From IMG/VR virus record IMGVR_UViG_3300045988_135167: a DNA stretch of 64,000 bases, one strand, 5' to 3'. This stretch comes from a virus. Each line of letters begins with the position of its first letter. Position 1 is the stretch's first letter. Of this stretch, positions 13,467 through 14,796 are shown piece by piece. A model generated the notes under the pieces. The model had not been told where the DNA came from. It made no database searches and was given only the letters and a program-made list of their open reading frames with translations. Position numbers and translations under genes: made by a program.

Positions 13467-14796
13467 TACCCCTGTTATCCTATTAAGGATGGGTTAAGGC
13501 TATCACAGCGGGAAGCAAAGTCAATTAGGATTTCATTAAAAATTCATATCCTTAATTATCTAGAATAAATTTCTATGATTCTCGCTTCGACAACTCGCTA
13601 ACCTTCCACTGGTTCTCCCAGTCTCTAGTGAACTCGAATCTCCACGAGCGTAAGTTTCCGACTCCTCATCGGTACAATATTTTAAAATATTCAACGCCGC
13701 ATTCAGGTCCCTATCTGCGGTATAGCCACAAAAAGGACATTTAAATGTGCGCTTGGATAAATCCTTCATCGCACGATGACGTTCTCCGCAACAAGAACAT
13801 AACTGCGATGAAGGGTACCATGGATCAACAAGCTCAAACGTACGTCCTGCACGAACGCATTTATATTCAAGCTGACGACGTATCTCATAAAATGATTGCT
13901 CTCCAATACTTCGGGCGAGATGATGGTTTTTCATCATGCCCTTGGTGTTGAGCGTCTCCATCCGAATCGCTTGGTTCTCGCGAACAAGGAATGAAGTCAT
14001 TTTATGGATAAAGTCTGTATGTTGGCGCATTAAGCGTCTGTTGCGTTTTGCCAATGCGATTTTGGCTCTTGTGCGTCTCTTGCTACCTTTATGGCAACGA
14101 GAAAAATGTCTTTGAGAAAGCTTGATGCGACGCAATGAACGCTTCAAAGGGTTCCAACAAAAGACTTTTCCATCAGAGCAAGTCACAGTGGATTTGAGGC
14201 CAAGATCAATACCAACTTCTTTATTTACTAAAGGAAGAGACTCAACAGGGTAATCGAAAAGAACTGAGCAATAGTAATCAATCCCATCCGTAGAAAGAGT
14301 GGCTCGTTTCAATTTCACATCTGGGATATAACCTTTGTTGTAAAACTTGACCCGACCAAGTTTAGCAAGGCGAAGATGGTTACCATCCTCAAGACGTGGA
14401 ACTGTGGGACTTACAGAAGAATAAGACTGTCTTAACTCTTTCTTACTCTTGAACTTAGGGTAACTTGCCGAATGTGACCAAAAGCGCTGAAATGCTTTTG
14501 AGAGATTGTCGAAAACAAACTTCGGTATTTGAGAATCACACTCATTAAGCCACATGAAATTAGAGTCCTCTTTCTTAAGCTTTCTTATTTCATTCCCAAG
14601 GTCAAAAGCGGATGGCCTTTTGGGCCGCTGATCCTTGGGGTATCTTTGTTCTCTTCCCACCATTTGTTGAGTCTTTCCAATCCCCAATTCCAAAGGAATC
14701 TTGAAGCACCAAAATTCCGATGAACCAATTCTTTTTGGAACTTGTTCAAATGAACTTTCACTTTACGACTCTGAAACATAGTTAAATTAAAGCAAC
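13467..14796. mobile_element. IS200/IS605-family (IS1341-like) insertion carrying tnpB only; exact ends not determined
   Basis: AT-richer block interrupting a high-GC phage operon; contains tnpB and an AT-rich 3' flank (13467-13560) where the omega-RNA/right end is expected; no tnpA. Confidence 0.6.
13560..14779 (-). pseudogene. tnpB: TnpB RNA-guided RuvC nuclease, split by a 1-nt frameshift near 14636-14645
   Basis: N-terminal 64-aa ORF (14585..14779) MFQSRKVKVHLNKFQKELVHRNFGASRFLWNWGLERLNKWW is the TnpB HTH N-terminus; the 377-aa ORF (13560..14693) has GIDLGLKSTVTCSDG (RuvC-I), CSCCGERH...FKCPFCGYTADRDLNAALNI (zinc finger and RuvC-III); the frames switch inside a CCCC run. Confidence 0.8.

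Follow-up and report, generated by a model that had tools for sequence, protein, structure and literature searches.

A tnpB element without a transposase in a natural phage population: knock-out alleles, a diversity valley and a possible history of RNA-guided homing

The split tnpB gene and its alleles

The IMG/VR virus record IMGVR_UViG_3300045988_135167, a stretch of 64,000 nucleotides from a gut phage (hereafter, the window), carries on its minus strand a tnpB gene of the IS200/IS605 insertion sequence (IS) family. TnpB, from which Cas12 descends, serves as a genome-editing tool, and how copies without the transposase TnpA spread and persist in nature is still argued. The gene occupies almost the whole of a block of 1265 nucleotides (1.27 kb; approximately 14796–13532) that we designate element A. 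The block has a GC content of 0.413 over 13532–14796 versus 0.564 and 0.539 in the flanking genes. It lies in the same orientation as the surrounding phage operon and is tightly packed between an upstream gene encoding a 402-amino acid DUF2800/PD-(D/E)XK nuclease (14797–16005; stop codon TAA at 14799–14797) and the downstream gene p257. The host phage matched no GenBank phage by DNA or by terminase protein and is thus unclassified; a scan of IMG/VR with the flanking nuclease returned no relatives. The features of the locus, all on the minus strand, are as follows.

14780–14796: leader and presumed left end, 17 nucleotides between the nuclease stop codon and the tnpB ATG
14585–14779: ORF1 (open reading frame 1), 64 amino acids from the ATG at 14779; N-terminus of TnpB with the helix-turn-helix (HTH) domain HTH_OrfB_IS605; premature TAA at 14587–14585
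13560–14693: ORF2 frame, 377 amino acids, the rest of TnpB; stop codon TAG at 13562–13560; first in-frame ATG at 14663
14637–14640: the lesion, CCCC, which is CCCCC in the intact alleles L022, L102, L105–L109 and P0141
14618–14624: heptamer C CCA AAA, an X XXY YYZ-type −1 slippery site that lies in the ORF1 frame only in the mutant allele
14207–14205: RuvC-I aspartate, D192
13958–13956: RuvC-II glutamate, E275
13709–13707: RuvC-III aspartate, D358
13799, 13790, 13739 and 13730: zinc-ribbon cysteine codons C328, C331, C348 and C351 (CxxC...CxxC)
13569–13675: omega-RNA-like scaffold (107 nucleotides, five helices) that overlaps the final 38 codons of tnpB
13532–13568: right-end tail, consisting of an imperfect hairpin and a short tail, with a Shine-Dalgarno (SD)-like AAGGA and the mini-ORF ATGAATTTTTAA
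13512–13531: putative guide segment NTCCTAATTGACTTTGCTTC, the first ~20 nucleotides of phage flank

The locus encodes a TnpB of the IS200/IS605 (obligate mobile element-guided activity, OMEGA) kind that is complete but split over two frames, which overlap at 14693–14585. ORF2 carries the OrfB_IS605 domain and a Cas12f1-like TNB zinc ribbon. Joined, ORF1 and ORF2 form a 406-amino acid TnpB; in this frame-corrected protein, scores for the Pfam domains PF12323, PF01385 and PF07282 exceed the gathering threshold in every case, and residues 7–369 match the structures of ISDra2 TnpB with E = 1e-50. The catalytic residues D192, E275 and D358 as well as the four zinc-binding cysteines are intact in the window and invariant in a 12-member family alignment.

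The two frames arise from the loss of one base in a run of cytosines. The sister contig L022, which is 96.8% identical to the window over 16 kb, and the intact protein P0001/P0141 (406 amino acids, 99% identical to the joined window product) read ...EENKDTPKDQRPKRP... in one frame through the C5 run; across CCCCC, the single-frame reading of L022 is ...EENKDTPKDQRPKRPSAFDL.... Over the whole of tnpB, the sole difference between the window and L022 is one C fewer in the window, and the same is true for L102 and P0141. The window gene therefore has no uninterrupted reading frame, the C5>C4 change leaving frames of 64 and 377 amino acids. A preliminary description of this DNA had recognized a solo IS605-family tnpB with all of its domains and no tnpA, an AT-rich foreign block between the nuclease gene and the next phage gene, and a frame broken by one lost base in a C run. 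The Pfam hits, the ISDra2 match, the domain calls on neighboring genes, the difference in GC content and the comparison of C5 in L022 with C4 at 14640–14637 of the window bear out all three points.

Element A is broken in most sampled phages that carry it. The 90%-identity protein cluster has 48 distinct members; the 15 members listed come from ~310 contigs, and the alleles below were counted among them.

C4 frameshift allele (window type), called as 367 amino acids: 145 contigs, the commonest
C5 with A4>A3 in the neighboring CCCAAAAGG, called as 367 amino acids: 15 contigs
E294*, called as 293 amino acids: at least 71 contigs
486-bp internal deletion, called as 205/166 amino acids: ~36 contigs
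Intact allele, 406 amino acids: 21 contigs

Further alleles combine C6 with a T-run deletion, combine C4 with a second frameshift, or carry Y368*. The same lesions are seen directly in the DNA of 20 sister loci, as are two more: R398* (13589 C>T) and, on the C4 background, the loss of an A at 14049. P0149 and L218 also have secondary frameshifts on this background. At least seven independent knock-outs other than C4 are present, and ~90% of the sampled copies of the element are broken. C4 is seen with at least four different nuclease alleles, which mark flank haplotypes, and the P0125 allele occurs with both C4 and C5.

Because C4 recurs in 145 independently assembled contigs and in at least four flank haplotypes, beside other knock-outs, a one-off sequencing error is excluded; C4 is a real and common knock-out allele. 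A single-base homopolymer difference with nothing else changed is the form that an error of homopolymer sequencing or assembly would take, and the gene would then be intact in the real phage. However, the same 367-amino acid product comes from many independent samples and assemblers (Logan, ENA), and C5 was correctly assembled in at least 90 other contigs of the same element. In addition, a C5 run is not error-prone in short-read data, and the secondary frameshifts in P0149 and L218 have piled up on C4. These observations leave the error explanation with a negligible probability. Because the C5>C4 frameshift stops translation after 64 residues, the window copy is, judged by its reading frames, a pseudogene that would make no functional nuclease and should be annotated as such. 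Of the two fates offered in the preliminary description, a decaying passenger or a working nuclease, the 145 C4 contigs and the other knock-outs favor the former and contradict the latter.

An allele this common might still function, either through low-level −1 slippage or through switching between C4, C5 and C6, such that an attenuated or phase-variable TnpB is kept by selection. The heptamer is in the correct frame in the C4 allele, and a −1 slip at C CCA AAA would yield a full-length protein of exactly the normal family length. Moreover, C4 is the commonest allele, is otherwise unmutated, and stands on record together with C5 and C6. Set against this, the intact relatives are single ORFs that read straight through the run with the heptamer in another frame, no stimulatory structure was found 3′ of the heptamer (z = −0.35), the second frameshift allele (A3) destroys the heptamer, and a C5 run is short for phase variation. 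Clear knock-outs are also common (E294*, the 486-bp deletion and the double frameshifts of P0149 and L218), a pattern in keeping with relaxed or negative selection acting on the protein. Since relatives read through C5 and downstream structure is absent, programmed −1 frameshifting at C CCA AAA G (14624–14618) was rejected, and we consider a C4 allele that still functions very improbable.

In 20 of 20 sister phages, element A occupies the same site, and it lies in a valley of diversity. Of the 1265 sites within 14796–13532, 7 segregate among 13 sister phages (nucleotide diversity, pi, of 0.0013), whereas the nuclease, p257, p195 and terminase genes have 3.6–11% segregating sites and pi values of 0.011–0.034. 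The window and L022 show 0 substitutions over 1310 nucleotides and 43–44 in the adjacent nuclease gene. More generally, the element is nearly invariant while its flanks differ by 1–3% between sister phages. In an alignment of 20 sequences, variable sites per 100 nucleotides rise gradually on both sides from 0–2 inside the element to 5–11 at a distance of ~1 kb. Purifying selection fails to explain the valley because synonymous sites are invariant too and knock-outs abound; indeed, two of the seven segregating substitutions are nonsense mutations. The coalescence of the element thus appears much younger than that of its hosts, which indicates a recent horizontal spread or sweep.

A candidate omega-RNA, the ends of the element and its family

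To define structured RNA at the 3′ end of tnpB, we aligned the 3′ regions of 11 distinct family members (50–64% protein identity, different phage contexts) from just past the RuvC-III motif to AAT..TAGAA. RNAalifold predicts five helices with 24 pairs, 15 of which show compensatory double changes versus 2–6 in slid controls. The alignment has 96.6% of its cells paired; when the partners are slid, the share is 36–46%, and none of 500 shuffles reached the observed value. The covariance model of the family (R1) has a single match in the window, at 13675–13569, with a score of 104.8 bits. All family tnpBs are also matched by R1 at their 3′ ends, and distant bacterial tnpBs show weaker matches immediately 3′ of the gene. 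A search of 12500–15500 against Rfam for a known omega-RNA family returned nothing relevant. By both position and character, 13675–13569 resembles what would be expected of an omega-RNA scaffold.

Solo copies of such a scaffold were observed elsewhere in IMG/VR, at L121:7452–7570 (minus strand), L125:1984–2102, L126:5604–5722, L127:1072–1190, L129:5466–5586 and L131:2516–2633. Each comprises the full scaffold (R1 scores of 103–109 bits), the hairpin and the terminal motif, and lies directly behind a TTGACA-type promoter and the stop codon of the upstream gene; no TnpB coding sequence is present anywhere in these loci. The contigs with solo modules carry a full tnpB elsewhere, as exemplified by L119 with L126 and L122 with L131. 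The modules could be second guides used in trans or miniature derivatives. A miniature L001-type derivative was found at L124:8715–8970, in which the first 61 codons of tnpB are joined to the distal scaffold and right end (R1 score of 49 bits).

The right end of the family is best seen in the sibling L001-type subfamily, for which an exact scaffold string retrieved 14 IMG/VR loci. In these loci, 27–45 nucleotides follow the scaffold and include, in one variant, a clean 9-bp hairpin; the subterminal hairpin of some family variants reads ATATAAGTA/TACTTATAT. The end closes with the terminal motif TATATAAAYCCCA, directly after which the flanks are unrelated at no fewer than eight sites. For element A, the corresponding tail contains only a bulged hairpin in its minimum-free-energy fold. 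We place the right terminus of element A at 13532 because the spacing of its tail matches that of the L001-type and the tract of zero diversity stops there. The tail extends 46 nucleotides past the GAGAAT of the scaffold in the window versus 45 nucleotides in the L001-type, where the terminus is set by at least eight independent insertions. Thus, the discrete terminus is shown in the sibling subfamily, and that of element A is deduced from the matching spacing and from the boundary of diversity at 13532.

The placement of these features differs from that in the preliminary description, in which the omega-RNA would lie in the 94 bp after the stop codon, a GC hairpin at 13414–13438 would be part of the RNA, and the right end was at 13467. 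The candidate scaffold instead lies inside the 3′ end of the ORF, and the hairpin (13438–13414) holds the −35 box of the promoter of the downstream phage gene (TTGACC-18-TATAAT, 13427–13398). TTGACT (13523–13518) was also considered as the −35 box of that gene and dropped, the promoter at 13427–13398 being much better.

In the canonical TnpB arrangement, the segment at 13512–13531 would serve as the guide, as the family architecture suggests; it has no other close match in the window, where matches with 3 mismatches were the only ones found and were judged not meaningful. Position 13531, the first base past the presumed terminus, is A in 8, T in 8, C in 3 and G in 1 of 20 near-identical sister phages, and it varies even among identical flank haplotypes. 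The T-run beside it (13546–13542) is variable in length through indels, and small indels were also observed at the right-end junctions of other family members.

The left end of the family is less sharply defined than the right. In the 17-nucleotide leader of element A (14780–14796), we found no IS605-type left-end hairpin, for which there is no room, and no promoter of its own. Short leaders of 12–17 nucleotides behind an upstream AAATAA stop are also present in the L002-type and L114 relatives. AAATAA thus stands at the left flank in three cases (element A, L002-type and L114) and is missing from the others. The left end of the L001-type differs, with ~55 nucleotides and its own promoter.

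Presence and position of the family tnpB vary among related phages, and the clade defined by at least 50% identity is found at many sites and on phage-like contigs only. The discrete right end at many sites argues that the family is a mobile element and no ordinary phage gene. The preliminary description had named, as evidence against an insertion, related phages in which the sequence forms an ordinary gene, in frame and lacking IS ends; in-frame relatives at the same site do exist and no empty site was found, but the right end is discrete at many other sites.

No Y1 or serine transposase appears among the Pfam calls on neighboring genes in 20 sister loci, and a transposase gene was found near none of ~30 family loci, the whole 64-kb window not having been exhaustively swept. 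Element A itself has no room for tnpA because it starts 17 nucleotides after the nuclease stop codon, and the adjacent tnpA or IS607 serine recombinase that would mark an autonomous IS200/IS605 element is absent. A search for an autonomous, tnpA-bearing copy in bacteria and archaea (one genome each from 185,579 species) yielded as its closest TnpB a protein with at most 38% identity.

A second insertion, element B (L104:7527–8771), encodes a 414-amino acid TnpB that is 58% identical and lies between p257 and p195. The spot is empty in near-identical sisters of L104 and in the window (~12530–12519), which provides a natural empty site, ...CTATTTATCATGAAGACGTTAAAG.... Insertion of element B replaced 7–11 nucleotides that include the start codon of p195; its right end supplies a new SD sequence and an ATG in frame, such that the p195 start changes from MKTLK to MKTKALK. 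Right ends of this kind add 10 in-frame codons (MTKVKYINPN) to two unrelated ORFs downstream in L001 and L023. Donation of start codons may be a trait of the family.

Homing and competing explanations

We consider it fairly probable that element A is a TnpB/omega-RNA element, non-autonomous and without TnpA, which moved between phages, probably through RNA-guided homing, became fixed and is now degenerating. Homing, cleavage of the empty site, the target-adjacent motif (TAM) and the guide are all steps that we infer. According to this model, the intact 406-amino acid TnpB would bind the structured RNA from the 3′ end of its own gene (scaffold, 13675–13569), with a guide taken from the flank that begins at 13531, immediately beyond the right end. 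Where a sister phage without the insertion co-infects the cell, this complex would cut the unoccupied site between the nuclease gene and p257, and repair by recombination with the occupied genome would copy the element in. A recent sweep of this kind would leave the element at the site in every sampled genome and, with no empty sites left to drive into, expose it to degeneration.

Such copying corresponds to transposon non-restorative homing, the TnpB-dependent and TnpA-independent spread of IS605 elements described in a plasmid population; a recent review of OMEGA systems lists co-infecting phages as theoretical targets (PMC13565253). The proposed step is the same in both cases: an orthologous site that is still unoccupied on a co-resident replicon is cut by the RNA-guided nuclease, and the element is copied in during repair. 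The evidence is of a different nature, experimental in the plasmid work and population-genomic here, consisting of the valley, fixation and decay in natural phages.

A close parallel in phages is provided by the free-standing homing endonuclease genes of T-even phages, such as SegF, SegB and Mob. Homing endonuclease genes pass through a cycle of invasion, fixation and degeneration, as modeled by Goddard and Burt. Like these genes, element A is a selfish nuclease gene between conserved phage genes; in both, presence is polymorphic, flanking markers spread along with the gene, and inactivation follows fixation. Unlike them, TnpB would recognize its target through an RNA guide, and the window family has a discrete right end that islands of homing endonuclease genes lack.

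Comparison with ISDra2 and other IS200/IS605 TnpB–omega-RNA systems (Karvelis 2021; Altae-Tran 2021; Meers 2023, PMC10055086; PDB 8BF8, 8EXA, 8H1J) places the window family close to them in design. They share a TnpB of ~400 amino acids with HTH/WED-REC domains, a split RuvC (D/E/D) and a zinc ribbon, a structured RNA that overlaps the 3′ end of tnpB and ends near the right end, and a flank that is expected to act as guide. However, element A has no TnpA inside or nearby and a left end of 17 nucleotides, the ORF of the window family runs right through the scaffold, the clade is confined to phage-like contigs, and the window copy is frameshifted.

Several observations weigh against a history of homing. 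No empty site for the element was found among ~70 contigs of its own phage species; sister phages with the nuclease alleles P0125, P0126 and P0127 were searched for one and all were occupied. L103, a more distant phage with the same gene order, has its nuclease and p257 homologues 75 nucleotides apart without an insertion and holds a 64%-identical tnpB paralogue elsewhere; it was set aside as an empty site, being too diverged to define ends at the level of nucleotides. The empty site was reconstructed as ...GGGAAAAATAA|NTCCTAATTGACTTTGC..., with the element-minus form also written as ...GGGAAAAATAA|TCCTAATTGAC.... Beyond the presumed terminus at 13532, ~80 nucleotides are still somewhat AT-rich (GC content of 0.486). 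The right boundary is sharp and the first flanking base is hypervariable, neither of which is predicted by simple recombinational co-conversion. The left flanks of the family yielded no clear shared motif beyond A-richness that could represent a TAM. Past the right end of element B, the sequence departs from that of the empty sites by 1–2 mismatches, and target bases were replaced rather than simply split. Finally, TnpA might be supplied in trans from a copy in the host or in another phage, which makes transposition a serious rival.

According to that rival, element A is a non-autonomous IS200/IS605 element, similar to palindrome-associated transposable elements (PATEs) or miniature inverted-repeat transposable elements (MITEs), that TnpA moves in trans by single-strand peel-and-paste without any homing. 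The discrete, conserved right terminus with flanks that diverge at once, the subterminal hairpin of some variants, the miniature derivatives (L124 and the solo scaffold modules) and the sharp right boundary of element A with its polymorphic first flanking base are all in keeping with transposition. TnpA, however, is missing from the ~30 family loci, and no bacterial genome contains a relative above 38% identity. A left end of 17 nucleotides without a hairpin is too little for recognition by TnpA as known for IS608 and ISDra2. Furthermore, element A occupies one identical site in all sampled genomes, diversity in its flanks recovers gradually as a recombinational sweep predicts, and the replacement of target bases by element B is unlike precise IS605 insertion. 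We therefore regard movement by TnpA in trans as unlikely, albeit the competitor to be taken most seriously. A domesticated phage gene, used either as a regulator or as an RNA-guided weapon aimed at rival phages or at defence loci of the host, is far less probable. Co-orientation and tight packing within the phage operon, restriction of the clade to phages and the gift of start codons to downstream genes by some right ends could all reflect domestication, and solo guide-RNA-like modules in genomes with a full tnpB recall a nuclease with extra guides. Yet many independent lesions have knocked out ~90% of the sampled copies, a state incompatible with a maintained function in this phage, and presence and position vary among related phages. 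The regulators in question would resemble TldR proteins, nuclease-dead TnpB-like repressors (10.1101/2023.11.30.569447) that are likewise TnpB homologues lacking TnpA, have a 3′ guide RNA and in some cases reside in prophages. TldRs have lost the RuvC catalytic residues and are conserved; in element A, the ancestral active site is intact, which argues against a TldR-like role, and the gene is being destroyed.

The locus offers a natural snapshot of a population in which an identical element with diverged flanks is present in all sampled genomes and ~90% of its copies are knocked out. Such a pattern is what one would predict for a TnpB that serves as a homing drive among co-infecting phages and has no further purpose when empty sites are gone. 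It is tempting to extend the model to the whole phage-restricted, TnpA-less clade. Tentatively, its members may be RNA-guided homing genes that move between co-infecting phages by cutting empty sites, pass through invasion, fixation and decay, the last being the phase seen here, leave behind solo guide modules with promoters, and donate a ribosome-binding site and start codon through their right ends. The intact P0141 protein and the 107-nucleotide scaffold constitute a compact, testable pair of nuclease and guide, and the reconstructed empty site of element A together with the natural filled and empty alleles of element B make the homing hypothesis directly testable.

Other features of the window

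A second selfish element is polymorphic in the same phage population. The 836-amino acid helicase of the window (16002–18512, minus strand) contains at ~17200–18320 an intein with a Hint/LAGLIDADG homing endonuclease (Pfam Hom_end_hint, Hom_end and LAGLIDADG_3) in an AT-rich stretch with a GC content of 0.30–0.40. L022 shares the intein; most sister phages have a 416-amino acid helicase without it.

Two further segments resemble parts of CRISPR loci. The single repeat-like sequence CTCGCGCCACGCCAGGCGCGTGGATTGAAAC at 12581–12618 (minus strand) lies just past the p257 stop codon, precedes a strong TTGACA-17-TAGAAT promoter, contains a 6-bp GC stem and has variants in sister phages. Its match to Rfam CRISPR-DR10 scores 21.8 bits (E = 0.11), short of the gathering score of 39; its tail, ATTGAAAC, is one that we take to be typical of type I repeats. 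The sequence may be a terminator-like hairpin or a solitary repeat mimic. At 63652–64000, running off the end of the window, a 60-nucleotide unit is repeated in tandem in 5.8 copies of two alternating variants. The array contains no unique spacers and has no match in Rfam. It reads as a 20-amino acid periodic repeat in a plus-strand ORF and is probably a coding repeat rather than a CRISPR array.

The window also contains a single ORF of 3323 amino acids (38873–48844, plus strand). Homologous giant genes (3381–3468 amino acids) are located immediately downstream of tnpB paralogues in the related phages L114 and L117.

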